The notes under the pieces are model-generated. The model saw nothing but the letters and a program-made list of their open reading frames with translations, had not been told where the DNA came from and did no database searches. DNA of 61,120 nucleotides, the filler included, from Dugesia japonica (Eukaryota): assembly GCA_001938525.1 (NCBI GenBank). It is 5 parts of 5 records of this genome, joined end to end, with 100 filler letters (N's around TTAATTAATTAA, not from the genome) between each part and the next. Parts side by side here need not be neighbours in the genome. Positions count along the whole stretch, not along the records: positions 49,852 to 61,120 come from MQRL01625466.1; 4 more parts are not named here. One strand, written 5' to 3'. Made by a program: the position numbers and the translations under genes. Every line of letters starts with the position of its first letter. Positions within the stretch are counted from its first letter, which is position 1. Below are positions 6,225 through 61,120 of the stretch, piece by piece.

Positions 6225-6345
6225 CATCAATCAGAACTGAATATACTACATCAATTTAACCTTGAAAATTCGAACTTGAATTATTTCAACTAATCAGAAT
6301 CGAGTATACTAAATCACCTTGACCTCGAAAATTCAAAATTCATTT
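6225..6345 (+). repeat. Tandem ~60-bp CCAATCAGAATCGAGTATACTAGATCA..ACCTTGAAAATTC units (dispersed family)
   Basis: Two units here; the same unit recurs three to four times at 9475-9621. Confidence 0.75.
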
Positions 6346-6520
6346 AAAATAAAAGCTTCGATCAAAATTTTTTTTTTTTGGTTTTCGAAAATAATTCTAT
6401 ATTTCGTCTATATTTCATTCAAGATTTAATTTTACAATAGTAATTTACTTTGAATTTATTTATTTTTATTAAATTTTATTTTGATTAATAATTATTTTGA
6501 TCGAAGCTTATTCTTTATTT

Positions 6521-8522: not shown

Positions 8523-9102
8523 TGACTCGAATTGTGTTTCCTACTAGTTTGAGAAGATGCCACCGCATACTACGCCGTCTACTATTAGAGCGACACTTAA
8601 AACGCAAAGCGGAGCATGCTCTTCTTAAACCGTAAGCAAAATGATTTGGCGGTTCAAACCAAAGCCCTAGAAGCCGAGAACAGGAAATTACTGTTAAGAA
8701 AAATAGATTTTCTCAAACAATACATCTCTGACCTTTCCAGACAGATTGGGAATCCAGCCTGGATTCATTGAATCGATGACGACGATGTCGCCGCCTTCGA
8801 TTTTACAATAGACGACCCAGATCAATGGCTAGATCCTAGCGTATTAAACGATCTATAAATGTCATATTAATAAATGTTCTAAGAAGTATTTGGTTTAAAC
8901 TTTTGAGCAAGTTAAGGGAAAGCTATTGAACCCAAATCCAAAGGTTTGTGGGTGTGCACCTTCCATCAAGGGTGAGGTCAACCACCATAAACTGAATACT
9001 TACCCTAGGGGCGGTAGGTTAAATTCTTGAACGGGTACCCCTGAGGGCTGTTTTTTCCCAGCCACACTTTTATCACCGTCCAACTCAAGTGGAACCCCAA
9101 CA
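8523..9102 (+). mobile_element. Four-ORF element, copy 1 (partial: ORF-C plus 3' terminus)
   Basis: AG|TG ACT at 8521-8525 starts 'xTRIVFPTSLRRCHRILRRLLLERHLKRK...RKIDFLKQYISDLSRQIGNPAWIH*IDDDDVAAFDF..DPDQWLDP'. Stop at 8858, AATAAA at 8869, terminus GGAACCCCAACA at 9102. Homologous to copies 2-4. Confidence 0.85.
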
Positions 9103-9470
9103 ATTTTAATGAAACCATAAATTTTAATCAATTTCATTTCTTCATTTGAAGATAGTCTCTCAGCTCGAATTCTTTCACCTTTAATTATACCAATTTTCTG
9201 ACTGATGGCCGTATTACTACTGCAAGGTAATATATGCCCACTGTGAAACGGTTTCATATATAATTGGGTAGATAATATTTCACCAGGTTTTTTTTGGATT
9301 AAAGTGTGCAGAAAAGGAATCTGAAAGTTAATTGATTTCTCTAAAGTAAATTTAATGTTATCATTAATACTGTTGGCTAATTCTTAAATGTTCTCTAGAG
9401 GAGAATTAGTTACAAAGAAAATATCATCTATGTATCTGAACCATAGATGAATTTTCATGTTAGATTTAAG
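9103..9470 (-). mobile_element. Penelope-like element RT fragment
   Basis: 'WFRYIDDIFF', 'IPFLHTLI', 'LYMKPFHSGHILP', 'KIGIIKGERIRAERLSS'. Close paralog of 48100-48430. Confidence 0.85.
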
Positions 9471-9474
9471 AATT

Positions 9475-20052: not shown

Positions 20053-21084
20053 ATTCAAAAAGACTGAAATAACTTTATTGGACTTTCGATTGATTTAATA
20101 ATGAAATAGATTTAAGTACAACTTTTAGTCAATTGATATTAGAAATTATAGAAGTGATTTCTGTATTGAGAAATTATAAATAATTTAATGCAAATAATTT
20201 TGACCATGTTCATGCATTTAAATAAACCACCATAATATAATTGTTTCACTTCGTTAATGCCAATCTAAATTGTACACTGTTTAATTATTATCAATGTTCA
20301 TAAAATTTGAAAATATTCAATTTATTTTTTTATTATCATTACATAAGAAAAAAAATTGTGAAGCGTACACGCTAACAATCTCAAAACGTATAGCTATCTC
20401 CCATGACAATTACTTATCAAAAAAGCTATAATTTATTGATTTTATTAAGTATTCAGGCTAGTATTCAATTATTACTCAAAACATACAAAACCATGTACAT
20501 GAAAGTGTAAGCCTATGCTCGATAAGGTTAGCTCAATGATATTATCAACTTCACTAAATTCTGATAAGATAATGCTGTTGAAATTTCAATCAAATCTATT
20601 TGCCTCTATACCGATAATAAATAAAGCAACACCAATCAAATGCTAGATAGATGCCGCATGTATGTATTACACACATGTGGTTTAATTTTTATAATTGCTC
20701 TTTGATTTTTCGCTTATTCACTATTAGTTCACATGTTATGAATTTGAGATTATTTCTAATCTAATCCGAATTTCAATATCGTACAAAGGTAAGTGTCGTC
20801 ATCACAAGTGGCTTTAATATTATCATTTAAAATTCTAATCATTATCATTGATTGCTTTCCTCATTCAAATTTTAACTGATTGTTATCAAAATCATTTGAT
20901 AACTTCAAATCTAATTGACACTCATGTAAATATCCCATTCAAATTTGTATTCTTTTTCGTAAGATCAATGATGTTAGAGAGATCAATATCATCAGTTTTA
21001 GACATGCGCCATGCTATAAAGAATAAATTTATTAAATTCATAATTTTTTAAATAAATCTTATTTCAGGAAGAAAATTCTATATA

Positions 21085-23364
21085 ATGGACATAGTTTCAC
21101 CAAAATCCAATACAAGTACTCTTAATACGTTGATCACGTATTCAAATTGTCCAAATATTGATATACAATCTAATGATATATCAGTTAATTTGACCAATTC
21201 TCAAAACTTTCATGAGTTAGACCATAAAAACAACTATGGCTACAAAGTTTCAAGTAATGATAACAAGTTAAATCATCTACCATATCTAGCTCAAACAAAT
21301 TTGACAGAATGTATGGGTGACATAACAAATGATATTAAGAATCAAAATTCACATCTTAACTATGGAAACGGAATATCATTCACTGAATTTTCTAAAATGT
21401 CTGAAAGTAATATTCCTGGTTATTCCCCGTATTGTTTTTCAACTAAATTATTTCCTATTCCAAATCTACAAGAAAAACCACTAATAAATGACAACTATGC
21501 TGTAAAATCTACGGGAGCTTTTATTGCAGAATCTAATGAGCATCAAAACACTGTAAATACCGGTACTTCTTATAATTCAAATTTAACCTCATACAGAACC
21601 GTTATACCAGCTCATTTTCATCTATTTAATCAGAATTCACCCGAATCAACGTCATTTTATAATACCTCTTGGAATAATTATCCATTCCAAATATCCCCAA
21701 CTTATCCTATACAAAATTTACCAGATTCTACAATAAACTGGACGCAAAACAGTCAAATTACTAACAACAATTTGGTTTTTAATCCCTGGAGCTGCAAATC
21801 CAATCTTAACCTTCCTCCTATTAATGAATTTGGTTCAAGTAAGTAATTTATATTTGTTATATATTTAATAATTAAAAATAAATTAAAATAAATTTGTTCT
21901 CATAATAAAGATAAATAATTTCTTTATACATTGGTGATATTATTCAGACAAGCTAATTGTTTGAATGATTATTAACCGATAAGATAAGCACTGGCAGAAT
22001 AAACGCGTTGACTATTCTAACTGATTTATCTTGCAGTTGATAAAGTTTCCACTATCTATAATCGCGTCTATATTTGCTTATGATAAATTATGTAAATAAT
22101 CAAGGATATCTGAAATATAAAATTAATTACTTTCAAATCATAAAATTTTAAAATCCAGATTGCGATGTCAGCAGAGAGTGTGTTAATTGTGGAGCTAGTA
22201 ATACTCAGTTGTGGTCTCGAGACAATACTGGTTATTATTTATGCGACGAATGCGATAGGTTCTCCCAAAATAATAGTAGAAACATTGAAAAAATACCCGC
22301 AAATCAAGTTACATCAAGTACCGAAAATGAATTCATGAAAAAGTCTAATGCAGTGATTATTTTTTTTTCAAAATTTCCTGTTTAAATAATTTTCATTGAT
22401 AGAGTTTTCAGCAATATGGAAAACGATCAGATCTCGAATGCAGTAACTGTAAAATTACTAAAACATCTTTATGGAGAAGAAATAATGAAGGAGAACCAGT
22501 TTGTAACGCTTGCGGCTTATATTACAAATTACATAAGGTTTCCAAAATATTTTATCTCAAAATTAATAATAATTAATTTTAGTCTCTGAGACCTCTTTCA
22601 ATGAGAAAAGAAGGAATCCAAACTAGAAAAAGGAAACGGAAAACACAATTGAAACCGGTCTCAGGTCATATTGCTAATAATCAGAAAGTCCCTTCTTCAG
22701 AATCATCATCAGAACAAAATCAGGTTTTTTAATGATAAATTTAATAAGAATTTTGAGATATACACACTATTTTTAACGACACGTGCTTAGGTTTTGATAA
22801 TTATTATAGTTATTATGCATAGATACAGACTTATCTATTAACTATTATTTTAAAATTAATATCTCTTTCCTGTTTAAAAATGAATTAAATAAATTACTGA
22901 TAAGCAAAACTAAATCATTAATAATAATTGATATTATAATTGTAATTTATTTTAGTTTATCAATGCTGTAAAATCTTCCGAAAATTGTTATAACATGATT
23001 TCTGAAAATTCTCCAACATATATGCCAAATATATCAATCCAACCTTACAATCGAATTTTAAATTCAAATCAATATCAATTTCAATCAAGTGAAAATCCAA
23101 TAAATCCAGTATATTTTGTATTAAATTATAAAATTATAAACATTTTTCTTTATATAGTCGTATTTAAATTCTTCACTCAAGAATAACAATCCTTTCTATG
23201 ATTCTGAAAGTATACTTTATTCGTACAACTCTTCAAATAAAATTAAAGACGAACCCTTATCCATGGATAATGAGCAAAAGCCATATTCAACTATTCCCGA
23301 TAAAATCGATGTTAATTCTATAGTGAGAATTAATGAAATCTCAAACAATTCGAATTCGAGTTAA
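21085..23364 (+). CDS. gata4/5/6: GATA4/5/6-class transcription factor; coding exons 21085-21838, 22159-22352, 22403-22537, 22583-22723, 22956-23108, 23158-23364
   Basis: GT-AG introns keep frame throughout. N-finger [25 protein letters not shown]; C-finger [33 protein letters not shown] followed by [22 protein letters not shown] and TRKRK are GATA4/5/6 signatures. Probable non-coding exon with donor at 20789 spliced to the acceptor at 21067. Confidence 0.93.
21909..22086. promoter_or_regulatory. Cluster of GATA-binding sites in the GATA gene intron (candidate autoregulatory enhancer)
   Basis: WGATAR at 21909, 21982, 22026(-), 22038, 22052(-) and 22081, plus CGATAA at 21977. Confidence 0.45.
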
Positions 23365-23581: not shown

Positions 23582-24334
23582 TCATTTATTTTCACTAAAT
23601 TTTTTCAATGCATCAATGTGATCTTTATTTCCCCAGACTGTTTTGAAAATATTTCGTTCAATTTTTAAGCCATTTACTCCGTTAAAATTTGATATTTCAC
23701 TCACTAAATTTTTGATAGCAAACAATACATTTTTTGATATTTCATCCGTAATACATTTCAAATCGTTAATAGTTTCTTCGAGTCTTTCATTTGGAGTATT
23801 TGAATTAAGAATTTTATCGACAAGACCGATTTCTAAGGCTTTCTGTGCATTGATAACTTCGGTATTCAAGAGCAACTTCAGAGTTGCCTAAATGAAATTG
23901 ACGTTTAAATAAATTACGAAAGATTTATTTCTGATAAAAATATTTATTTAGCAATCATTAAACGAGAAAAGATTTAATCTCACTTTCTAATCAAATATAA
24001 ATAAAATTATGGCGCCAAATGAAAATTGTCAAAAATTTAGTACAAATAATAATTTTGAGGTGTGTTGATTGATTGAGCATACAAATAGTTAATAAATAAA
24101 ATTAATTATTCAATAACAAAATATTACTTGTTTGCCAATTAACTGAATGAGTTTATGACAACCACCCCAACCTGTAGTGACACCTAAATTTCTTTGTTTA
24201 AAAGACAACTTTCCATTTTGAGCAATATATCTAAAATCACAACATAAAATCAGCTCAGCACCACCACCGTAAGCTACGCTTTCTATCAAAGCCACACTCA
24301 GTGAAGGCAGTTTCTCAATTTTTCTTGTAAGTGA
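23582..24334 (-). CDS. ECHDC1: Crotonase-fold protein, ethylmalonyl-CoA decarboxylase (ECHDC1)-like; last two exons 24334-24128 and 23887-23582
   Basis: 'LPSLSVALIESVAYGGGAELILCCDFR...LGVTTGWGG..LIQLIG|ATLKLLL...AQKALEIGLVD...ERNIFKTVWGNKDHIDAL'. Phase-0 GT-AG intron. 5' exons not located. Confidence 0.85.
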
Positions 24335-25509
24335 CTAAAGAAAAATATATTTTCTTAATTTTGCAAAATAAGAAATTCATAGTCAAAACAACAAGTAATA
24401 ATTGAGTGTTTTCGGTTTAAGGAAATTATAAATAATTTATTAAACGTTTTACAATTACAATTATTGCGATAATAATTGTCAGACTTAACCACTTTTTAAA
24501 GACAATTGTCGAAAATTTGAATTACTAACAACAAAAAAAAACATTTTGATCGAAGCTTTTTAATTTATTGCAAATTTATCACAATACTAATGGCGTGTTT
24601 CAAAATGAGTGTTAGGTAACCGTTTTATGTTAGTGACACCCAACTTTTTTTTGATGTTTTAAGACTTAATTTTAATAAGTTAAAACATTTAAAAGAATGA
24701 AAATATGTATTAAATCGGTTCATTTGAAGAATTCCCCNCCCCCCAAAGTGACAAACTTAAATTACAAGTTCTTTCCAAGTTATTTATTAATCTAAATTTA
24801 ACACAGTCAATAGGTAAGCAATGAATATTACCGAATGTTTTTAATGTGGGGGCCATAGTTTACATATCATTTATAAAATATAGTTTACTTATATAAATAA
24901 AATGAAAATATTGCAAATTAATTATAATGAAAATAGAAATAATAATTATGATTTGTGTTTTTGTAAATATATTTACATTATACAATTCGCATAAATAAAA
25001 TAAGCAGTAATTAATAATAATGTCAACAAAATGAACCGAATAAAATTTACATTACCAATGATTGGGGGGAAATTCTACAAAAGAGCCATTAAATCTTATC
25101 TAAAAAAATTCCTTGCTAAAAGATTTGTTTAGTTTGATTTTTTAATTATTTTCGTGGCATCAAAATGTGTCACGGCATCCCAGTTGTCCAACACTGCTTT
25201 AGACGATACTAAGCGTTTTCCTATCAAATGTGTTTTGTTAATTTTTATAAATAAAAAGAGAATAATTTAAATTCAAAGCTATCAAAAAGTGACATTTTTA
25301 AAAAATAACAACAAAAATTAAATTAAATCTGCTTTTATTAAATCGTACAAAAAAGATCTTTAATGTATAAGATAATATTAAGCTTGGAATTATGATACCG
25401 AGACAAAAAGTATAAAAATATTATATATAAAAATAATATCCATTGCTCAAATTAAAAATTAATTAAAATTTGAAATGAAAAAATTTAAAATCCAAAACTT
25501 TAAACCCCT

Positions 25510-28355: not shown

Positions 28356-29109
28356 GTAAAAGTTGTAAATTATGATTTACCGCCTTTTGATTTGTGAGAT
28401 AAACCTCAACTAGATATTAAGCAGGCATGAGAGTATTGTGTTAGTTTTTCAACAATTACTAACATAAAAAAAACCAAAATATAGAAAATCATTAATACTG
28501 GATATGATACGAGTACTTGATAAAGGATATGAGTTCAAACAGTATTTTTAATGCTATAAAAATGATTGATGATTCATTGAAAATAGTTTCTCCTTAAACA
28601 ATACAAAATAGTTTCCTTATCGGTAAATTGGGGAGGTAAATCTTATTTTTGTAAATAAGCAACTATTTTCATATTTAAATACCACTTCAAATAAGAATAA
28701 TAAAGTAGAAAAGTATTTTTAAATAAATTTATTATAAAGAAACACAATAGAAAACTATTAAAATTTAATTCAGTGAGATATTTGCTCATTAAATCAAATA
28801 TCAATTAATACAAAAACTAGTTTTTAGGGAGGCCACGCAAAAAACTCACGAAGGCCGCAGGTCCCTATCTCTGATATATTGCATTCCTCAGAGTTCAAAA
28901 TAAAATTAACAATTATCAGCTTTGACAAATTTTGTCTAAAATATTTAATAAATGATAATTCCATTTGTTTTTTAAAAAAAAATATTGAAAAATTTATAAA
29001 TTTTAACTAGATTGTAATTCAACAAGTTTAACAAATCATTAAATCACTTTCCAAGTAATCAATGTAATTTAACAAGGTAAAAAACGTCTAATTGATTATT
29101 TTAAGTAAT

Positions 29110-29640
29110 TTACAATTACAATTATTGCGAGAATAATTGTTGGACTTAACCCTTGATCGCATTTGAAATTTCATTGAAATAATAGCTTCGATCAAATAAA
29201 ATTGTTGTTTTATAGATATTCGAATTTTTTACTATCGGTTTCTTCTAGAATATAACGTTTTGATAAATTAAAACGATATTAGAAAATTTTAACATGATTG
29301 TTTGTATTTTATTAAAATTTTATTGGATCATTTTCATTAAAATTAAAGCTTCGATAAAAATCAAAAAAAAATTTGATTTTAATGAATTCTGAAAAACGAT
29401 TTATAGTTACGTACAACAGTTATTCTCGCAATAATTGCAATTGGATCACTTTTATCAAATTTCTATTAAATTGAAAATTTTAAATGTTATATTAAATTGT
29501 ATTATTTAAAAAAATTTTCAATTTATAAGTGTTTTTACAATTGCAATTATTGAGAATAATTGTTGGACGTAACAATTGATCGTTTATCAGAATTCATTTA
29601 AAATAAAAGCTTCGATCAACATTTGTTTTTTTTTGGTTTT
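29110..29640. repeat. Cluster of a MITE-like family (ACAATTATTGCGAGAATAATTGT hairpin plus AAGCTTCGATCAA motif)
   Basis: Several copies in both orientations here; others at ~6340-6520, 24450-24560, 46910-46990 and 60990-61090. Confidence 0.7.
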
Positions 29641-29641
29641 T

Positions 29642-29749
29642 GATAACAATTCTATATTTCGACTTTGTCTTCGTCAGGAATTGACTTTTTAGTCAAATTT
29701 AAAAAGTCAATTCCTGACGAAGACAAAGTCGAAATATAGAATTGTTATC
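29642..29749. repeat. Perfect fold-back (49-bp arms, 10-nt spacer) at contig end
   Basis: 29642-29690 is the exact reverse complement of 29701-29749. Confidence 0.9.
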
Positions 29750-29848: not shown

Positions 29849-32573
29849 NGGGTCAGGTATTCAGCGTATGGTGGTTGACCTCTCTCTTAATGGAAGGTAC
29901 GCGCCCATACACCTTTTTATTCGGGTTCACCATTTTCCCTTAACTTACACAAAGATTTAAGACAATGATACTCATAACATTTATTAAAAGGACATTTATA
30001 ATTCGTCTAGCAAGCCAGGGTCTAGCCACTGGTCTGGGTCAGGCAATAAAAAATGGAAGGCGGCGACATCGTCACTGTCGTCCCATTGCACCCAAGCGGG
30101 GTTACCAATCTGGCGGGAAAGGTCGGAGATATATTGTTTTAAAAAATCTATCTTTCTCAACAGCAGTTGTTTGGTTTCTGCTTCCAAGGGCCTTAGTTTG
30201 GTTCGCCAACTCATTCTGTTTTCTGACTATCAAGTCCAGTTTTTTATTAGTTGATCCCGCTGGGCCAAATGTCTAAGAAAGGCTCAGTCTGCTTTACACT
30301 TTAGATAGCGTTCCAACAACAGACGGCACATGATCCGATGGCAGAGATGAAGACTGTTAGGGAAATTGATACGAGGCACTAAAAAAGATTATAATTAATA
30401 TAGGGTAACTTGACACAAGAATTTAAATAAAACATTAAGATAGATTTGTAACAAAATCTTCGATACAAATTTATTTATAATGGAAATCTAAGGCAATTTA
30501 GTTCCAGGGGTCTGGATGCTCTTCTCGATCATTAGGGGCTCGAGAGGTATTTGCGTTCGGAGACGTAAAATATCATCAACCAGTTTATTTTCACGGTCAT
30601 GGCCGGACCGGATAACTTCAGTAAAAGATTCAACCTGTCTTTTCCAGGTTCGTTCCTGCAGGTGGGAGGCCTCGGCTTCCTTTCTGAAGGCGATACATTT
30701 TTTCTTATACCTTGTCACCTTACTTTTAGCAGTAGCGATTTCCGACTCCCATTGACGTTTTGCAAGTCGATATAGGTCCCAAGTGAGCTCGAGGTCCTTT
30801 CTCGGACTTTCTTAGTAGAAGCTGTGGGACAGTTTAACGAGGAATGCACTAAACAAATATTAATAAAAAAAATTTTAAAACTAACAACATAGGTAACTCT
30901 ACCTACGACCTGAAAATGAACAAAAGGTCGGTATAGTAATATTAAAGAAATCTCAATTAACAAGATTAACAACAGGTGAAAGTAGATTAAAATTAGTTAA
31001 GACACATATCTATTAATCAGTATCAGTAACAACAACATAACTTTAAGAGTCAGGAGTTGGATTTTCAGCAGGAGCGTTATTCTCGGCATCTTCTGACCCG
31101 GTGGGTTCCCTAGCTCCCAGAGCATGTTGTTGATAAATGCCTGTACCTCTGGTGGGGGGCGCTGGTGGTTGATAACGGAACAAGGTAGCAAAGTTACGTC
31201 CCGGCCCGGTACATTGGCGAAAGTTCAGTCGTTCCCCAAAGCTCTGAATCCGGGCTACCGCGGCTTTGACGGGGGGTAAATTCGACTTATCAGACAGAAC
31301 TCCCGCGTCTCGATGATAGGGATTGCGATGTCGTCTGAAAACCACGCGACGAGTCCGTCGATCTATTATACGCTCCCATATCGATTCCATTCTATATAAA
31401 TATACCGCAATTTATTCAAATTATCATATATAAATTAATGAAAATAGTATGAGTGACAAATATAATTATTCAACTCGCGAGTTTATTTTAAATGAGTAAC
31501 AGCGATTGACAGATTGCTGTCTTGCTTAAAAAGGCGTACTCTTCGTATCAATATCTACTGGAGTCACTGATGGGAACATCTCCGCGAAGCAAGCTAAATC
31601 GGTCTCGTCTGGGTGTTCTATTTTACTCTTTGTCAACAGATAAGCCACTAACTGCCTTAATCTGACGGTCTTGCGTTGTTTCCGAATTATTCTGAGCATA
31701 TTCCCCAGTTCCGTGGGCATAATCTAAATATGACAAATGACCAATGATTATATTGAAATTCGGGACCCCCTTGGACTAGCCCCTGTTACGTGATATGGAT
31801 TTTACTGTCCTCAGTGTTGCTAGTCCCAACGCTCAATATTATATTTGTGGGATTTTACTCATGATGAAATTACTGTCACCCAATAGCACCCCTGTCCTAT
31901 TGGGAGAATAATGTCTATCGGGACACTAGTATTCAAGGCTTTATCCTCATCATAACTGGAATAAGACAATAATCATACTTATTTCCATAATAAAATTAAT
32001 AGATCCACTAATAAATAATCGTAACATTAACTCACTGAAGGTTTTGACATTTAGAGATCATAGTTGAATCAGTTATGAAGATCAAAACCCTAATACTATT
32101 GTCAACAACACTAATAAAAATAATACTGATAATGATGACGATAATAATTATAATCATAATAATAGTGATAGTAATAATTATAATAATGATGATCGTCAAA
32201 TAACTTCCATAATAATGGTTCGATTGACCATACTAATAATACCAAGATTATCAATTTTAATGATGATAATAATAATCATACTAATGATAACTTTACTCCA
32301 GATAATAATTATAAGAGTAATTTTATAGTAATAATATTTATAATAAGATTAATTATTATGATAATGATAATATTTATAAAAGGAATATTTTCGGTGGAAA
32401 CATTAGGGAATTCTACCGGTTTATTCATGTCCATAGGATATTTGATAAAATTTCAGCGATAAGCCCAATTCTGGAATTTGAAAAATTCCGCTGAAAAGGG
32501 TTGCCTAGCAGTAGTAAACAATTTAAGATGCTATAATAATACACACTGAAAAAGAGATGTGTGTGTATTAACA
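29849..32573 (-). mobile_element. Four-ORF element, copy 2: ORF-0 31720-31526, ORF-A 31390-~31000, ORF-B 30848-30488, ORF-C 30378-29996
   Basis: All four ORFs align with copy 3, with frameshifts and stops. Acceptor AG precedes each (31724, 31392, 30849, 30379). TGCTAGGCAACC at ~32500 is shared with 50047. 3' end cut by a gap; 5' boundary uncertain. Confidence 0.85.
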
Positions 32574-34529: not shown

Positions 34530-36418
34530 ATACAGATAAATATTAACACGACAGGTAATCCAGTAGCACAGAAATCTCGAAGATTATTTGGAGAAAAATT
34601 TGATGCAGTAAAAAGAGAATTCGATCGTCTTCTGAGAGCTGGAATAATTTGCCTTAATAACAGCGAATAAGCCCCATCACTTGTTGTCGCTAAAAAACTA
34701 GATGGCTCATGGTGACATCAGATAATTAAATGAGCTAACCATACCAGACAAATACTCTTTACCTAGAATCCAAGATCTATTGAATAAACTTGGGGACTTT
34801 ACCATTTTCAGCAAATTAGACCTTAAAAAAGCATTTCATCAAATACCGATAGCAGAAAAGGACATTCACAAAANNNNNNNNNNNNNNNNNNNNNNNNNNN
34901 NNNNNNNNNNNNNNNNNNNNNNNTCATCAAATACCGATAGCAGAAAAGGACATTCACAAAACTGCGGTTATCACACAATTTGGTTTATATGAATACTGTA
35001 AAATGCCGTTCGGGTTGAAGAATTGCTTAGCTATTTTTCAAAGATTCATGGATAAAATTCTAAGAGAGCATAAAGACTTCGCGATATCATATGTCGATGA
35101 TATTCTTATATTTTTTAAAAGATGAAGCAGACCATGAAGATTATATACAAAAAGTAACCAACACCATTTATTCTATAGAATTAGAGATCAATGCGGATAA
35201 GTGTATTTTTCGATCACATCAAGTAGAATTTTTAGGATTCAAAATATGGAATCCTTCCTAAAACTGAAACAATCGAAAGCTTAAGAGAAATGAGCCTTCC
35301 AACGAACTTAAAGAGCTTGCAAAGATTTACAAGCTGCGTTGCCTTTTATGATTGGCTCATTCCAAATTTATCTGAAAAGATTGCACCACTTCACAAGCTA
35401 ATTATCAAAAAGAAAAAACCAAAAGGAAGTATACTTGAATGGACCAGTGATCAAGTAAATGCGTTCAACACCATTAGAGATGCATTACTGAATTTACAGC
35501 AATTGAATTACCCAAAACAATTTGTGTTAAAAACTGATGCATCATTAGAAAAAGTTGGAGTTGTATTGGAACAAGTGGAATCAGAAAGAAGACATATTCC
35601 AATTGCATTTTTTCAAGAAAATTGTCTTCTACAGAGAGAAATTACGCAACCTTCGTCAGAGAACTGCTAGCAGTAGTACTTGCAGTTAAGAATTTCAAGC
35701 ACTATTTGGATTCTACACCATTTGCCATACAGACTGGCCACCAGCCTTTATTAAAGATTGCAACTATGAAAGATCCGAATCCCAAACAATGGTGATGGCT
35801 TGAATTCCTCACTCAATTTTCCTTCAAATAAGAATATTTAAAAGGATCGGAGAACACAGTAGCTGATTTTCTTTCAAGAATAAACGCACTAAGCAAAGAA
35901 GTTGAACACATAACAGTGGATGAAATAATCAAACAGCAAGCAATCGAGAATCTACAAGTATTATTAAAACATCTTCCTTGAAATTAAGTGTCTCTGAGGA
36001 AGAAATAGTTATGGACATATCACAACCCAAACCGCGAATAATTCTACCAAAATCACTTTTATTAAGAAAATTCAAAAGTATTCACGATGGCTGTCACACT
36101 GGAGTAAAACCAACAACAACAATGATAGCTGAGAGGTATGTTTGGCCAAGAATGCGATCAAATATTCGTGAATGGTGCAGAATATGGGAGAATCGCCAAC
36201 GTTCAAAAACTTTGAGGCACACTAAATCTCCAATAACGATATTTCCTGATGCTTGTAGATTTAAATATCTACATTTTGACACAGTAGGACCNCTACAAGC
36301 AATAAACAACAAGCAAAATCTATTGACGATGATTAACAGAAAGGATTCATGGGTTGAAGCAGTGCCATGTCTACAAATAACATTCAATTACGTGATTAAC
36401 ATATTATTAAATACGTAG
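34530..36418 (+). mobile_element. Ty3/Gypsy pol remnant (RT, RNase H, integrase start)
   Basis: 'FSKLDLKKAFHQIPI', 'MPFGLKN', 'YVDDIL', 'LKTDAS...GVVLEQ', HHCC-like 'HDGCHTG...WPRMRSNI.EWC', 'HFDTVG'. Confidence 0.92.
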
Positions 36419-39400
36419 ATCAAAGTTGATTGCTTGTTAGATACTGGAGCAAGAGTTAATGTGATGAGTTTGAGAATATTGAAAAGATGGAGAAAAGTCA
36501 ATATATTAAAAGGTGAAGTCAATTTAAGATGTGCCAATAATAATCCGCTTGAAATCATCGGTACGATAAAGTTAGAAATAAAATTCGAGAAAAACGAAAC
36601 ATTTCAATTTATTGCGGTGAAACAGATACACCCAGATCTAATTAAAGGAATAGAATTACAGAAACAGTTTAGATTCCAACGGCTGAGAGAGACTAAATGC
36701 AATATAATGAAACGTATCTTTGTAATATAGAAGCAATGTATGGAGGTAATACAACGGATGAAGAAAGAGTACAGAGGGCAATAAAAATATTGATTAACAA
36801 GCCAAATGAGAATTTGGAGAAAGTTTTAACGAATTAAAAAGGAGTTTTCATAGTAGACAACGGGGATATCGGCAGAACAATAGTGGCAGAACATCCAATA
36901 ATCACAAGTGGAGAACCAATATATCCGAAACCACGGAGACAACCAATGCATTTAGAGAATAAAATAGATGAAGCTATCAAGAATTTGTTTGACAAGGGCA
37001 TTATTAGGAAGTGTAATTTGCAATGGATCACTCCATTAATATGTGTTTGAAAAAAAGAAAGAAAAAACGTTAGATTATGTCTAGATTTTAGAAAACTCAA
37101 TGCAATCGCAGAAAGATAGGCATTTCTGATGCCCAATATAGAAGAAATACTAGACAATTTGAGTGGTGCAAGATATTTTAGTACTATCNNNNNNNNNNNN
37201 NNNNNNNNNNNNNNNNNNNNNNNNNNNNNNNNNNNNNNNNNNNNNNNNNNNNNNNNNNNNNNNNNNNNNNNNNNNNNNNNNNNNNNNNNNNNNNNNNNNN
37301 NNNNNNNNNNNNNNNNNNNNNNNNNNNNNNNNNNNNNNNNNNNNNNNNNNNNNNNNNNNNNNNNNNNNNNNNNNNNNNNNNNNNNNNNNNNNNNNNNNNN
37401 NNNNNNNNNNNNNNNNNNNNNNNNNNNNNNNNNNNNNNTATATGAAATAAAAAAAATTGAAATTATTTACAAAATAATAACAGAATTTGTAAATTTAATA
37501 AATGAGTAAATTACAACGTTTGTAAAGAATACTGGAATTATGTAATTTTTATTTAAATAAAATAAATGAGAAATGATAGTAAAAGGAATGAATGGATTAA
37601 CGGTGAAATTGTACAGATGTATATAATCTAATGATTATTAAAGTATTAACAACGAGCTAGAATTTTAAGGAAAATATTTATAATACTCATTAAAATAAAT
37701 TAACAATAATAATAATAAGAGAAAATAAAATTAAAATAATACCTAAAAAATCGTAGAGCGTGGCGCCCGCCAAAGTGAATAATGAAAATGAACAACTATT
37801 TATACCCTTTGGAAATCGGCTATCGATAAATTAAGTCGACGTGAGTAAACAAAAAAAATCGTTTTCAAATAAGGAATATGGAAGAAAATAGGAAATTAAT
37901 CAATTTAGATGTACTTAGTAAACACCAAAGTTCTCAGCGTGTTTACATGAGCAAACAATTACGAAAAATACCTAAATAAAATAAAGATTTATATTATTGA
38001 AAAGTTGTAATTAAGAAAAATAGTAATTAAAAATATTATAATGATGTTCATAAAGCAATTTGAGTCATGATATCAATTGTAGTTTTAATAGAGATTATGC
38101 CTAAAAATGCAAATAAAAATATAAAATAATAAAAGCAAATTAGTAGTAGTTAATTATTTAATGCTCAAACGAATAATAAACATATCAATAGATTTATTAT
38201 ATTGTACAAAATAATGTAGATACAATCATCTTAAAAACTATCAAGCGTGAATAAAAATTGATATCATGACACAGTAAGAGCAAATACAAACGGAGATCAA
38301 AGTACAATAAAGATGAAAAATTAACAAAGTGAAAACTTAGGTTAATTACATTAAAATAACATAAAGTTGGGAAATTGATGAGAAGACATTTTATATTAAA
38401 TTTTTGAGTAAAACATTATTAACCAAATTTGAACAACTAAAGTTAAGAAAATAATAAAATAACATACTTAATCAAATTGAGAGAGGTTATAGACTAATAT
38501 TAACGATAATTTGGATTATTATAAAATTTGGGAGGGTTCTTGAATATGTAATTTTAATCTTGCTGACTTTTTATTAAAAAAATATTTTTATTGGTTCTTT
38601 TGTCAAGTATAGATTGTGAATGTGTGTTAAACTGATATATAAACAACTGTAAATGTTCATAAAATTTGGCAAAAGTGATTATATACTCTAGTCCTATTTA
38701 GAGAAAATAAATATTTTTTTGGAAGATCTTAGTGAAATTATTGATTTGATAGCTAATATTAAGGAACCTCAGGACGAACCTTTATCTGAGATTGAAGTCA
38801 GATTTCTTATCAAGTGAGTAAATTTTAGGAGTAAACGAGCTTAATTGTTGAAAACCCCAACAGTATACATGGATGATATATTGATAATTTCAGAAAATCT
38901 AGACCAGCACTATAAAATTTTAGACCAAGTTTTTAAAAGAATTCAAGAATCAGAATTGAGAATTAATCCGGAAAAATCTCATTTATTGTGAGCAGAAGTC
39001 AAATTTTTAGGACATGTCATAGACAAGAATTGAGTTCGAACCGATCCAACAAAAATTGAAGCGATAAAAGTTTCAGAAGACCTAAATTTGTAAAGAACTT
39101 GAGAAGCTTTTTGGGAATATGTAATTACTATAGAGGGTTTATCAATAATTACTCAAAGAAAGCTAGAAGCTTGGAAGAGCTATGGGAAGGTAATAATACA
39201 AAACTTGTGTGGTCGGAAAGTAGTGATAAAGCTCTTAATGAGATGAAAGAGGCATTAACAAAAGCACCAATATTGAATTTCCAGATATCAAAAAGATGTT
39301 TGTACTAGATGCAGATGTGAGTTTTGATGCAATCGGAGCAGTTTTATCGCAAATAGATGAAAGAGGTGTAGAACAAGTCATTGCATATGGGTCACATGTA

Positions 39401-39547
39401 ATGTCAGCTCATGAAAAGGGATATTGTATAACAAAAAACGAATTATTGACCATTTACTATTTTTGTAACGATTTTAAACATTTGTTTGGGAAAAGAGTTT
39501 TGGTGAGAACAGATCACAAAGCGATATCATTTATTAATTATTCTTAA
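36419..39547 (+). mobile_element. Second Ty3/Gypsy pol remnant (protease and RT 36419-37188; RT and RNase H 38863-39547), interrupted by a gap and an insertion
   Basis: 'LLDTGA' protease, 'RLCLDFRKLN', 'MPNIEEILDNLSGARYFSTI'; resumes at 'VYMDDILI', 'LRSFLGICNYY', 'FVLDAD.SFDAIGAVLSQ', 'RTDHKA'. Confidence 0.9.
37439..38862 (+). mobile_element. LTR-like insertion ending AAAACCCCAACA, inserted directly before the VYMDD codons of the Gypsy RT
   Basis: Sharp junction CCCCAACA|GTATACATGGATGAT at 38862/38863; 5' end lost in the gap. Confidence 0.55.
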
Positions 39548-39689
39548 AATCGTTAATGTATTTGGGTTATGTGACACGTAAAATCTGAACTATTAACTAA
39601 ATAAACAGTAAAATTTATTTAAATATGGGATAATAAAAAGCAACNNNNNNNNNNNNNNNNNNNNNNNNNNNNNNNNNNNNNNNNNNNNG

Positions 39690-49851: not shown

Positions 49852-52755
49852 TGTTCAGGATAGCATGCACACACTCTCAATATATCATGCCGATGAATAG
49901 CTGTCAGTATGACACACCTTTAAATGACACATCTCAGAACGATAATAGGTGTCACCCGATAGGAGTAAAGATTTTGTTTGGTGTTTTTTGTGTGCATACA
50001 TTACACATGGTAGCCTGACATTTTTCAGAGTAATTGAGTATAGGGTTGCTAGGCAACCACATAATGCATTTATTTTATGTTTTCAGATTTTCCATCACCT
50101 GGAAACTATTTAAATAATGTAGATTTGAATATACGAGTAAGGTGCGATAGAAGGAAAAATCCATATCATCTATTTTCGTAATTTTCACAAGATATGGTAG
50201 AGTTTGAGGTTGTCAATTTAAATTTTAATATTAACTCCGTCTCTAATTCTGTCTTTATTATCCCCTTTATTAGTCCATTTATTAATATTATTTCGAGTTA
50301 ACAGTATTAATATTATTATTTTAGGCACGACCGTATAGTTTGTCTACCAGGATTAGCCTGATTTTTACCGGGTTGTTATCAGCGTCTATTTAATATCGGA
50401 AAATGTCATTATCAGTTCTAATATCTCCATTACAGCCTGTCTGAGAAGTTGAGTGTGTTGTTATATTGATATTATGGTTACGCGATTATTATTATGATTA
50501 ATATTAGCCGTATCCTTTTGGATTTCAGTATTATTGACATTACCACGTTATTATTGTTACTACCTTACTCATTAAAATCGAAGGGCAATATTGGGAAATA
50601 ATTCTCGGAATCCTCACTAACTTTAGCGATGATAACCTAAATATAAGTAATATTCGTTGAATAAGAATTCGACAAGCAGAATTTTCAACTCATTACCCTA
50701 CCCTGATTTATGACTCTTATTACTATTTAAAATTACTTNNNNNNACCACCGTAAACAAGGAACCAGGGCCGTTATTTGTGATAATCAACTTGGTCTAGGA
50801 AACTCACTAGAGATTTATCAACCATAAATAACTATCTAATTTTTAGCCAATGCCAGCTGAATTATTTCATTCATTAAAATGGATAAGGCGACAACGCCAA
50901 GCGTCCTAACTGAAACAATTAATTGCTCACCTCTTAACCAAAGAGAGGGTTGAGCACCCAGATGAGACTGATCTACGTTNNNNNNNNNNNNNNTTTCCTT
51001 TAGAAGAAGGAGTAGATGTAGTTGACGATTTATCATTGTGTTAACATGAAATAAATTTGATATGAAACCTTTTCTGACGTTTTCTATTTTTAATGCTTAT
51101 ATATTTATTTTATATCTTGACCCTTTACTTAGAAATGGAATCTATTTGGGAACAAGTGATATATAGAAGGATCCGCAGGGTAATTTTCCGTCGCCATTAT
51201 AACCCGCATAAAAGAGATGCCGTTATCTTGGTAGATAGGACAAATTTACCCCCAATAGAGGCAACAGTGGCTCGGATTCAGAACTTCGCGGAGAGGGTAC
51301 GATTTCAACAGTGGAATGGCCCTCTACGTAACTATGCTACGGCCTTCCACTATCAACCTTCAGCCCCACCCCCGGTCATGCAGGCTTTTATATCTAACTT
51401 GCTCTGGGGCGTAAGGGAGCCAACCGGGGTGAACGATGTTGAAAACACGGTTCATGTCATTGATAATAACATTACTCCACCATAAAATCTATCTTACTTT
51501 GAAATTAAAATAAATAAGTGTCTCGTTCGTTATAATCTGTTTTTAGATTTGCATGCATTTGTTAATGAAAATTCTGATACATTTATTAAAATCAAGGAAT
51601 ATATTGTATGTCTGTGTAGTCATAATACTAATAATCCAGTGCATTCCTCTTTGAACAAATCACAGGCCCCGAACAAAAAACTGCGAGAAACTATTGAGGA
51701 TCTTGATCTCACTTGGGACTTGTGTCGACTGGCAAAATGTCGATGGGAGGCCGAAATAGCCGTCGCCAAAAGTAAGGTGTCTCGCTATTAGAAGAAATTT
51801 GTCGCTTTCAAAAAGGAAGCCGAGGCTTCCTACCTACAGGAGCGAACCTGGAAGAGACAAGTTGAATCTTTTTCAGAGATTATCCGGTCCTGCCATGACC
51901 GAGAAAATAAACTGGTTAACGATGTTTTACTCCTCCGGGCAAAAATACCGCTCAGTCCTTTGATGATCGAGAAGGGTACCCAAACCCATCGGACCTAGCT
52001 CGTCTAAAATTTGTATTTTGTAAATAAATGTATTGCACGATCTCGCTTACGAATTTAATTATTCATCCTAATTTTACTTAAATCCTGCCGTCATGTTACC
52101 TATGTACTAATTTAATTTCTTTTAGTGCCTCGCATCACTTTTCCCACTGGTCTCCACAGATGTCACCGTATAATGCGCCGCCTGTTGATCGAGCGCCATT
52201 TAAAAAGGAAAACAGATAAAGTCTTCCTCCAACATTTGGATCAACGAGATATTCTCATAAAAAACTTGATAACATAGTAAAGAAACAAAGTGATTTAGCA
52301 TCCCAAACCAAGGCCCTGGAATCCGAAACTAAACAATTATTGCAAAGGAAAATAGATTTCCTAAAGCAATACTTAGCTGACCTTTCCCGCCAGATTTGCA
52401 ACCCAACTTGGGTCCAATGGGACGACAATGACGATGACGCCACCTTTAATTTTACGGTAACGGATCCCAATCAGTGGTTAGATCCAGGAGCTTTGGATCT
52501 GCTGTAGATGTTTTATAAAATAAAATTTGCATGGTTAACGTCGTATTCTTTTCATAACTTATTAATAATAGGGAAATTAATGAACCCGGATACAAAGGTT
52601 GTGGGCGTGCACCTCCTCTTAAGCAAGAGGTCAACCACCATCAACTGAATACCTACCCTAGGGGCGGTAGGTTAAATTCTTGAACGGGTTTCCCTGAGGG
52701 CTGTTTCCCCTCAGTCATGTTTTTCCTACCATCCAACTCAGGTGGAACCCCAACA
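49852..52755 (+). mobile_element. Four-ORF element, copy 3 (most complete): ORF-0 50850-51044, ORF-A 51135-51485, ORF-B 51640-52007, ORF-C 52126-52507
   Basis: Begins TGTT right after a gap and ends GGAACCCCAACA. Acceptor AG ends at 50846, 51132, 51639 and 52125, most with a CTAAT branch-point-like motif. AATAAA after each ORF (~51050, 51509, 52023, 52519). Confidence 0.88.
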
Positions 52756-53478
52756 GATTTGTTACATCTAATGAACCAAATTAATATTAAAGAACATAAG
52801 TTGATTTATTGGAACAGATAAATTATTGCAATGGTTTTCAATCCAGAAATTTATTTACGCAACAAGGAGAAATGGATGAGATATGTGGGCCCCATGAATA
52901 AAATATGATTTCAAATTATGAGTTTGTGTGTATTGGGTAGATATATATCGTGTAGGTGTGTCCATGAATTGGAAAGAAAATTAGACTGCGCTAGTGTGAA
53001 ATTAGTGATAAATAGATTAATCAATTCAGATTATTAAGGTGGTTTTAAGTGCACTATGTGCTTGCTCCAGATTGACATGCCGCTCACGTTAGTTGGATTA
53101 ATTTACCTAAATTGTGAGTTATTCTGTAATCAATAAATTTTGGTAATGATTAATATTATAATTTTCATTAAATGAATTTTCTTTATTTAATAATAATGAT
53201 TCTAACTATTAATAATTTTATTATTTTGATTAAATATTCAAATAATGTTAATTTGCTAAGGATATTAAATAATAGTCAAAATAATTGATAAAATAATTCT
53301 ATTAATATTGATTAATAATGTTTTATATAAATGATAGGAAAATCAATCAAGGGATAACGATGATAATAATAAAACAATAAAAGTAAAGCCTTTTTTGAAA
53401 ATTAATTAAAGATCGATAATCATGCATAATAACTTTCGATTTCGTTACAGAAAATTATTATAATAATAGTAATGATAG

Positions 53479-55230
53479 TAGTGGGGTTCCATCTGAGTTG
53501 ATGTTAGAAAAATTATGGCTGGGGGAAAATAGCAGCCCTCAGTATAGTCGTTGACTCTCAACCCATAATTGGAGTACAGACTCGCACCTCTTTGGTTCGG
53601 ATTCACAATTTTAATTGATTTTATGACAACTAAGACAAAGAATTACTATATATTAGAAAAATTTATTTATATTAAAGTTTTCGGGTTCATCCCATTAGTC
53701 GGGCATGTCGCTCTTAAAATAGAACGCGGCCTCGTCATCGTCACTATTCCAATTCGTCCATGTTTCAAGTTCATATCGTGCGGTCAAATCCGCGATATAT
53801 TGGGTTGGGAAGTTGACATTATTAAAATGTCGGCTTTCCATGTTGTTGGCTAGAATAACTAGTTTGTTGAACATCATTAATTTTTTTCGAAAAAATATAA
53901 CTAGAAAATTAGTTCAGTAAAAATACAACACATCATGCAGGACTTTTATTGTATGACAAAGTTATATCCATATGCACCACTATACACGAGGGGTCTGTGT
54001 CGATTTATCTATAAGCAGTGAGTCCGATGGCAGTTGCTCATGCAACTTTAAGATATCATTCACGAGTTGTGTTTCATGTTGATATAAGCACTGAATGATA
54101 TCTGTAAAGGCCGTTAGTCTGGATTTCCACTGGCACTCTTGCATATGAGAGGACTCCATCTCAGACTTATACTCCTTACACCGTGTCCGCGCCCGTTTGG
54201 TATTGGCCTTTTCGGCTGCAACCTCAGCGTCTCATTTACGTTTCGTTAACTTGTACAAGTCCCAGGTCATCTCAATATTCTCGCTATCCACTCGCAGTTT
54301 CTTATTCGAAACTATGGATCGAGAGCTGGATGAGTTCATTAAAATGAGTTTATGATAAATACAAGCTATTTACAAATTAAACATCGACAACATTGCTAAG
54401 TCATAAAAATTAATAAGTGAAAAGACTTAAGTAAACTTAACTTAACAAGAATTTATTAGATTAAACAACTAAAATTAGGCTATTAATAATGTCCTAAGTA
54501 ATCCTCCCAATCTGCCTCTGGTGAGGCGTATGGAGATGGGTCTTGACCAACAATCTGATCTTGGTCGGGCCAGTGTTGGTATAGCTAGCGTTCCGCCGCA
54601 TCAATAAGTAGCTGGAAATCGGCTTCGGTCGGTGGAAGGTTGTATACCTACTTCTCGCCGTTACGGGTTATGCAAGCGTCGGAATACTATTCGGTTGGTA
54701 CGTTTGTCCCGAACTAATTGCCATCTAAAGTCTGTTACTAGAATAAAATAACCAAAACAATTATATAAGAGGTTGTGTTGACGAATAATAAATTCGGAAC
54801 CCGAAGATTCTAAACAGAACTGTGACTTTAATTATAATAGGAACATCGAAGGAATTAGTTTTAAAGAGAAAGACAAATAACACAAGGAACATCATTTACT
54901 TGTTGATAGAATCAATTCATAACAAAAAGTTTCAATGTCATAGGCTCAGGGATTCCAAAGCGCAAATTTTGGCAAAGCATACCAGATCCGTCTAATCTAT
55001 GTGCTCAATTCTCTCCGGGAATAAGAAATGACCAATTAGTTGTCACTGGCGAGCTGCCTTCCTCTCTCTGCCATTAATCGCAAGGTATTGTATAGCACAT
55101 CAGGCATAGTTCTAGAAAAATGATATGTAATAAATTGTTGGATAATGAGATGATAATGAGAAAATAACGGAGCCCCTGAAATAATGATAAAGCTACTGTT
55201 AACACAAATCATCGAGCCTATCATCAAAGT
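53479..55230 (-). mobile_element. Four-ORF element, copy 4 (divergent subfamily): ORF-0 55107-~54940, ORF-A 54737-54483, ORF-B 54339-53980, ORF-C 53900-~53650
   Basis: 'MPDVLYNTLRLM...IEHID*TDLVCFA'; 'WQLVRDKRTNRIVFRRLHNP'; 'NKKLR...MTWDLYKL.KR...LLIDKSTQTP'; 'QYIADL...W..W..DDDEAAFYF'. Terminus CAACTCAGATGGAACCCC. 5' boundary unknown. Confidence 0.82.
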
Positions 55231-60009: not shown

Positions 60010-61120
60010 TATGGATGATATTCAAATGTTGATGATATATTATTTCAATAAACTGTTATTGTCTCGCTGATTATAAATTTGTGATAGGTCTGGTGTTGAG
60101 GTTCTTTTACCGCGATCCTGTGTTTTGTATGTTGACTGCGTTCATTGGCATATCCGTAATCGTTTGTGTGTACTTTGTATAAGTTTGTGTACACCTATTG
60201 GTCAGCTGTTCTCCTGTATGATTATCACAATCATCATTTTGCAGTGTTCTGTGTAGGCCAACATCATAAGCTGACTTATTCGTTGTTAATTGTGTTTTTT
60301 GCTGACTATGATTTTTATTGTGGTGATATGATATGACCATAATAGTGTTATTAATTTTGCAATAATCAATCGAGACCTTTATTGTCGACTTTTTAACTGA
60401 AACTCGTACCTTTTTATTAAAATTTAACTATGATTATCATTATTTCCAAAAATAAATCCATACAACAATTTAATTTTAATTATTAATTGTAATAATCAAT
60501 AGCAATTCCTTATTACTTTACTATGCATCATTTGAACTTCGGACATTTTATATGATTGGAATGATTTTTGAAGAGGTTGTGATCACATGAAATTATCTTG
60601 AAAAATTGCGAATTTAATTTTAAGATGGTTGAGAGAATTGTTTATCAATTGTGATTATCATTAATTTTGAATAGATTCATGTAGCAACAAACCTCCAATT
60701 CTAGATTGAGATTATCGAATTTTTCTCTTTGGATTCGTTTTAAATGATTAATAAGTAAAGATAAAACAGACAACTGTTGATAATTGCCAAGTAATCGAAT
60801 TTCTTTCTATCTCTAATAAATTATTTTTAACGTAATTTAAATATGAAAAATTAGTGTGGTTGAATATTTTGAACTGATTCCAAATGTAATTTGCTGAAAA
60901 TGTGATTGTAAATATCATTTTCATGGCTTCCTCAAATCAATCTTTAACATATTTCCAACGAAAATAAATTAAATAAGAATACCAATAAAAATATTTTACA
61001 ATTATTACTAGAATAATTGTTAGACGTAACCATTTATCGTTTTTCAAAATTCATTAAAATAAAAGCTGTCTTCATCCGGAATTGACTTTTTTGATTTCTT
61101 CAATATTTATTTTTATAAAA

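Follow-up and report, generated by a model that had tools for sequence, protein, structure and literature searches.

Organization of the cassette copies and their surroundings

The window, that is, the whole 61,120-nucleotide stretch of Dugesia japonica DNA that was analysed, has the composition of AT-rich animal sequence. It contains four related copies of a cassette of short ORFs, located at 8.5–9.1 kb (+), 29.85–32.5 kb (−), 50.0–52.76 kb (+) and 53.48–55.1 kb (−) and referred to below as copies 1 to 4. Copies 1–3 are approximately 71–75% identical across the aligned parts, and copy 4 represents a diverged subfamily. The ORFs are ordered X-A-B-C and are followed by a terminal segment, E, of approximately 155 bp. 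All four copies are decayed, with stops or frameshifts in each.

Copy 3 is described here first. ORF-X (50850..51045, +) has its own ATG 3 nt after the AG of a putative splice acceptor and is interrupted by a stop at codon 20 and by an N gap, and ORF-A (51135..51485, +), with its own ATG 2 nt after the AG, is intact and encodes 116 aa. ORF-B (51640..51998, +) starts AG/TG, where the slash marks the putative junction, and comprises about 118 codons with a premature stop at codon 50; its product is predicted to be helical or coiled-coil. ORF-C (52126..52507, +) also starts AG/TG, has a frameshift near 52250 and an in-frame ATG at codon 16, and would encode a protein with a basic N-terminus, a heptad-like middle and an acidic, Trp-rich end. 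There is no detectable homology between ORF-B and ORF-C. Segment E (52600..52755, +), which reads TGT...ACA and contains conserved hairpins, forms the common 3' end of the copies.

Copy 2 (29850..32520, −) comprises a further region Y, X (31720), A (31390), B (AG/TG, 30848) and C (AG/TG, 30378); it carries several frameshifts, and its E is interrupted by an assembly gap. A 108-bp near-perfect palindrome at 29642–29749, for which the matches to miRNA families were all sub-threshold, adjoins an assembly gap as well. In copy 1 (8523..9102, +) only E and an ORF-C with AG/TG, an internal deletion and stops are present, X, A and B being undetected. Copy 4 (53480..55111, −) consists of X (ATG 55107), A (AG/TA, 54737), B (ATG 54339), C (AG/TT, 53900) and a shorter E; its ORF-C has an ATG of its own at codon 8, and its ORF-A has no in-frame Met ahead of the first stop.

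Region Y, located upstream of X at 50088..50800 (+) in copy 3 and 31750–32470 (−) in copy 2, is decayed, Ile-rich and ORF-like, with an Asn/Asp-rich opposite strand. The copy 3 region is weakly alignable to that of copy 2 and CAG acceptor-like sites occur at matching places in both, and Y is possibly a fifth ORF of the cassette. A palindrome that we take to be an X-box (RFX)-like motif is found upstream in three copies, at 50045..50057 (+), 32512 (−) and 8194 (+), and may be either promoter or coding sequence.

Among the neighbours of the cassettes is a GATA-type zinc-finger gene at approximately 21.0–23.2 kb (21052–23190, +), with a degenerate first finger and short introns, which lies tail to tail with an enoyl-CoA hydratase-like gene (23585–24320, −). 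Fragments of Ty3/Gypsy-like pol, recognized from motifs read by eye, are present on both strands at 34700–36750, 39060–39550 and 42040–43760 and are not linked to the cassette. A decayed Penelope-type (PLE) remnant with RT and GIY-YIG occupies 47.5–49.1 kb (47500–49110, −) and shows 69% identity to P0001 (with PF00078 and PF26215) across the searched portion of the RT. A short dispersed repeat bearing the first codons of a P0001-type ORF recurs at 29080–29200, 29534–29619, 24448–24490, 60996–61067 and 6332–6366 and is probably the pseudo-LTR of the P0001-type PLE family.

Acceptor-like sites and reading phase

Every ORF start that has an AG (12/12) shows it as YAG, and the preceding 20 nt or more are free of further AGs. 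The acceptor region of ORF-B in copy 3 (51600..51639, +) has a branch-like TACTAAT at −12 and ends in CAG, and that of ORF-C (52085..52125, +) has branch-like motifs at −19 and −14, a T-rich tract and TAG, with no second AG within 60 nt. AATAAA is found in 12 of the 14 slots between ORFs or after C, against a window background of 0.31 per 130 nt; because the slots are homologous between copies, they amount to about 4 independent cases rather than 14. A poly(A)-like signal is placed 49–130 nt ahead of the next acceptor. The regularity of the 12 sites is difficult to reconcile with AGs that are never used and a pattern that is merely relic or coincidence in dead repeats. Such an account could appeal to the decay of all copies and to the RNA reads, among which none is at least 99% alike to copy 3 and none lies over an acceptor, but coding constraint begins at the acceptor and relatives of the cassette are present in oligo-dT RNA (see below), and we consider it very improbable.

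The first-pass annotation of this DNA had noted that ORF-B and ORF-C begin AG/TG in one and the same phase. This was confirmed at 8523 (+), 30378 (−), 30848 (−), 51640 (+) and 52126 (+), with the conserved frame beginning at AG+2 in 5/5. All five instances are real, but since B and C are not homologous and each is seen in several copies, they represent two evolutionary origins and not five. TG follows 43 of the 600 acceptor-like YAG sites in the window, a background from which we calculate a chance of about 0.005 for TG at two independent ORFs. The G of the TG is kept at all five sites and in copy-4 B when the four window copies are compared, whereas copy-4 A (TA) and C (TT) lack the TG. The statement that no ATG lies nearby holds for ORF-B, where the first in-frame Met is codon 83 (copy 2) or 108 (copy 3), but not for ORF-C, whose codon 16 is an in-frame ATG in copies 2 and 3, though not in copy 1.

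The starts with their own ATG were likewise found as described: AG/A-ATG at 31391 (−), AG/AA-ATG at 51133, AG/ATT-ATG at 31723 (−), AG/CCA-ATG at 50847 and AG/AACT-ATG at 55111 (−). For comparison, 155 of the 2008 ATGs in the window have a YAG 1–4 nt upstream. From the variable spacing it had been concluded that phase is free, which is true only of ORF-X (ATG 3, 3 and 4 nt after the AG). Eight of the nine intact A/B/C acceptors place the frame at AG+2, the exception being A of the frameshifted copy 2, so that phase at these ORFs is not free; copy-4 A (AG/TA, 54737) and C (AG/TT, 53900) are indeed in the same phase as the AG/TG sites. The literal ATG of copy-4 B at 54339 (−) is present at the equivalent codon, but its A aligns with the G of the acceptor in copies 2 and 3, and from this alignment the ATG could be a genuine start preceded by an acceptor 27 nt upstream, or the product of a decayed acceptor.

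Phase also bears on a possible resemblance to an operon resolved by flatworm-type SL trans-splicing, with a leader ending in AUG, in which B and C would be in frame only if the cut were made after the TG. Acceptors ending in TG are rare, which counts against such a cut. The cassette shares with flatworm SL operons the short gaps between genes and a poly(A)-like signal placed close ahead of the following acceptor, and in copies 2 and 3 an SL-derived AUG would be in frame with X. As set out in part of PMC12582326, the SLs of flatworms have AUG as their final bases and resolve polycistronic transcripts; joined at the AG, however, such an AUG does not match the frame of A, B or C. Its frame runs into a stop after 5 codons in B and immediately in copy-1 C, and B lacks an AUG of its own. 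We therefore attach very little probability to this arrangement.

Coding constraint and the identity of the junction codon

Comparison of copies 2 and 3 over the initial 15 codons of ORF-C gives 9 synonymous and 4 non-synonymous codons, with the differences distributed 2/3/11 over codon positions 1/2/3, and the other two frames yield zero synonymous codons. The corresponding synonymous and non-synonymous counts are 7 vs 5 for copies 1 and 2 and 6 vs 4 for copies 1 and 3. In the first 16 codons of ORF-B the differences by codon position are 5/3/10. The codons immediately behind the TG are thus under constraint at the protein level, which indicates that translation enters ORF-B and ORF-C at the junction and that the N/TG codon is read. 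ORF-B behaves as expected of a splice-generated start, in that its frame is conserved to the acceptor and it has no usable ATG of its own; in ORF-C the frame is conserved to the acceptor as well, with 15 constrained codons ahead of the internal Met.

If the junction codon were Val (G/TG) or Leu (C/TG), its G would occupy a fourfold site and be free to drift. Fourfold third positions in ORF-B are identical at 17 of 28 sites between copies 2 and 3 and at 0 of 8 and 1 of 9 in comparisons with copy 4, and the ORF-C pairs give 12/22, 6/18 and 7/19 (two blocks summed). At these rates the chance that a free site would show an unvarying G is, by our arithmetic and leaving copy 4 aside, about 0.12, or about 1 in 8. 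The fixed G is therefore a better fit to a Met codon than to a Val or Leu codon, as judged from the aligned copies.

These results have to be weighed against a more conventional gene structure, in which a short coding exon with the AUG would precede B, C and copy-4 A, these being normal second exons spliced to it in phase 1, with Val or Leu as the junction codon and X expressed by a separate route. The common phase of eight of the nine A/B/C acceptors is what such a structure predicts, the TA and TT of copy-4 A and C would both give Val if preceded by G, and a final G is the norm for donors. A candidate 7-nt exon (CAG...G/GTAGAG), which would convert phase 0 to phase 1, is present at 30903–30909 (−), 54 nt upstream of the copy-2 B acceptor, but copy 3 has no GT at the matching place. 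Among the top-scoring GTs listed, none inside X or A is a phase-1 donor common to copies 2 and 3. The structure further requires TG to have arisen by chance at two ORFs (43/600 each) with no drift at a fourfold site, and in copies 2 and 3 the exon of ORF-A opens with an ATG of its own. We regard it as unlikely, if the least so of the alternatives considered here. In 3/3 copies a phase-1 coding leader would not be in register with the ATG of ORF-X, and taken together with the fixed G and the TG at two ORFs this makes a start codon the simplest reading of the junction, as A/UG or, less likely, as G/UG.

Search for the putative leader exon and its donor

The missing A had been tentatively assigned to a candidate donor CGA/GTAAGG at 50136/50137. 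This sequence is present, within a candidate donor region (50137..50147, +) that contains A/GTAAGG and an overlapping G/GTGCGA (50142), but a donor role for it was not supported. The A at −1 is not conserved, the aligned site in copy 2 being CCG/GTAGAA with G at −1, and the G-ending donor at 50142 in copy 3, 5 nt downstream of 50137, scores higher. Open phase-0 ATGs are found upstream of the 50137-aligned site in both copies (50077 in copy 3, 32434 and 32428 in copy 2), an arrangement that would suit X rather than B or C, and the phase-1 ATGs upstream of 50137 in copy 3 are closed by stops. The 50137 site may be the start of region Y.

The regions upstream of copies 2 and 3 align barely better than expected by chance, with a score of 106.5, which was reached by none of 200 shuffles (best 104.5); no significant alignment with them was obtained for the sequence upstream of copy 1 or copy 4. 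No conserved donor that could supply the missing A was found in the window copies, and within E there is no A-ending GT common to the copies. The GTRAG sites found ahead of X in each of copies 2, 3 and 4 have A as the preceding base (3/3), yet this carries little weight because the sites are at non-homologous places and A precedes 45 of the 107 GTRAG sites in the window. An 11-mer common to the regions upstream of copy-2 B and copy-3 C was discarded as not significant (17/200 shuffles). The leader exon most likely lies upstream of the sequence kept in the window, beyond the contig end at 49852, and not at 50137. Donors ending in A are workable in this genome, as the phase-1 donor TAA/GTAATT at 21843 is the one of two donors tested that keeps the host GATA gene in frame.

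A leader ending in G, whether supplied in cis or by the SL of a phylum in which this leader has a final G, would give GUG and a low-level, near-cognate start of B and C. The fixed TG is accounted for equally well in this way, the aligned donor of copy 2 and the 50142 site of copy 3 both end in G, and the distance from the poly(A)-like signals to the next acceptors resembles operon spacing. However, eukaryotes seldom initiate at GUG and do so weakly, copy-4 B has an ATG, and the base at +4 after the junction start is C or A, a poor initiation context. On balance we think a GUG start doubtful, and somewhat more so than the phase-1 coding exon.

Terminal segment E and its association with Penelope-type sequences

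In copies 1 and 3 segment E resembles an LTR in beginning with TGT and ending with ACA, with a short purine tract upstream; the end of copy 4 differs. A second LTR was not found, as a search of the window located E only at the four cassette ends, and neither a linked gag-pol or env nor a PBS accompanies the cassette, whose ORFs gave no Pfam match above the cut-off. Because the 5' parts of the cassettes are missing at a gap or have given way to other repeats, the absence of LTR features is provisional. Assignment to Helitrons was rejected: Helitrons end in a 3' hairpin followed by CTRR, and here the ends read ...CCCCAACA or ...CCCCACTA.

E gave no match to Rfam at E-values up to 1 and no hammerhead ribozyme was detected in it; a by-eye reading as a pistol-, HDV- or hammerhead-like ribozyme did not fit. 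Its predicted folding is not better than that of shuffled sequences (z −1.16 to 0.57), and two-sided changes were seen in 2 of 33 pairs of the three-copy alignment, which are too few to judge the structure of E.

In two of the three intact ends, E adjoins an antisense fragment of Penelope-type RT in the same relative orientation, at two different positions of the RT. The fragment next to copy 1 (9120..9473, −) corresponds to P0001 aa 534–648 with 86% identity, and the one next to copy 3 (52755..52842, −) is approximately 90 bp long with a score of 60, compared with a shuffle maximum of 38. The PLE remnant at 47.5–49.1 kb (−) is separated from copy 3 by an assembly gap. A single unit formed by the PLE at 47.5–49.7 kb and copy 3 was not supported: the N-terminal part of P0001 does not map into 49.1–50.8 kb.

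RNA reads and homology searches

Four raw RNA runs of the source species were mapped to 49860–52900 at 80% likeness, which placed 9, 74, 17 and 87 reads per run. The reads fall mainly on ORF-B (51876–51916) and E and come mostly from two runs of one study; matches near 50300 are of low complexity. No read crosses either the ORF-B or the ORF-C acceptor of copy 3 and no joints were listed in the four runs. Diverged relatives of the cassette are thus transcribed and present in oligo-dT RNA.

No homologue of ORF-A or ORF-B was found among 5.8 billion proteins, and an ORF-B profile gave 0 matches among 1.84 billion representatives. Searches of viral contigs with the cassette proteins, and of metagenome contigs by DNA pattern and by ORF-C alignment, also yielded no homologue, and the Pfam matches of the cassette ORFs were all below the cut-off. 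The predicted fold of ORF-A has a mean pLDDT of 40.7. A literature search, conducted mostly on search entries, found no published description of this element or of an A/UG start in it.

Discussion

The proposal that a leader ending in A completes AUG is retained as the leading model: entry of translation at the junction is supported, but the donor originally suggested, and the argument from free phase outside X, are not. On the evidence of the aligned copies, we lean towards the view that the start codons of ORF-B and ORF-C are completed by splicing, as A/UG. In this model (Y?)-X-A-B-C would constitute one transcription unit with alternative terminal exons, in which a single non-coding leader exon ending in A is spliced to one acceptor out of several, giving mRNAs with one ORF apiece, and every ORF has its own AATAAA behind it. 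X, and A in copies 2 and 3, would use their own ATG behind the acceptor, and B and C would obtain theirs from the junction alone. As the start of B and C would exist only at the junction, neither protein could be produced from RNA that was unspliced or spliced incorrectly. The acceptor-like sites, their phase, the coding constraint, the poly(A)-like signals and the decay of all four copies are direct observations, from which we infer acceptor use, a shared leader and its last base.

A common leader with alternative acceptors and poly(A) sites is familiar from the adenovirus late unit and from the accessory genes of complex retroviruses. The row of cassette ORFs, each with an acceptor and AATAAA, is similar, but in those systems the AUG is normally not divided between exons, and the searches found no viral homologue of the cassette. 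The closest precedent for the start codon is gypsy env, where, as reported in part of PMC2585583, splicing of AT to G builds the codon; a split env start codon holds for errantiviruses of the springer subclade, according to part of bioRxiv 10.1101/2023.08.03.551782. In both cases the AUG of a retroelement ORF would exist only after splicing, but gypsy and springer have AU/G, one ORF and mapped junctions, whereas the cassette would have A/UG, at least two ORFs and several acceptors, as read from the DNA, and has no linked env, gag or pol. The mechanism would thus work like that of gypsy env, and membership of the cassette element in the errantiviruses is not supported so far.

PLEs retain introns and can move intron-containing genes in trans, and antisense templates have been proposed for them, as covered in parts of PMC3846280 and PMC8557442. 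The retained introns of the cassette, its fixed 3' end, variable 5' extent and lack of a poly(A) tail fit what these sources describe for EN+ PLEs, as does the position of E next to PLE RT fragments in two of three intact ends. Unlike EN+ PLEs, the cassette has no RT or GIY-YIG, and its E has no Rfam match; the PLE family of the window also differs in having its own short repeat, unlike E, which carries its first codons. The accessory ORFs described for Burro and Terminon in the sections of PMC6431247 consulted include none resembling the cassette, and non-coding PLE derivatives are the subject of bioRxiv 10.64898/2026.07.22.740005. It is a speculative and rather unlikely suggestion that the cassette belongs to an undescribed intron-retaining element, probably moved by PLE RT, comprising an adenovirus-like unit of 4–5 orphan genes with one leader, two of them gated by A/UG.

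The split start codon AU/G of gypsy env is already known, and reuse of A/UG across alternative terminal exons would be new if true. Gene finders miss ORFs that start at splice junctions. With its orphan proteins, its transcribed relatives and its unexplained link to Penelope fragments, the cassette looks like an unclassified element family. If the model is correct, a single base of the leader would jointly license the translation of several alternative exons, and a mobile element would have a compact means of keeping accessory proteins off the unspliced RNA that is copied. The precedent of gypsy env would then be widened from AU/G on one gene to A/UG on several.
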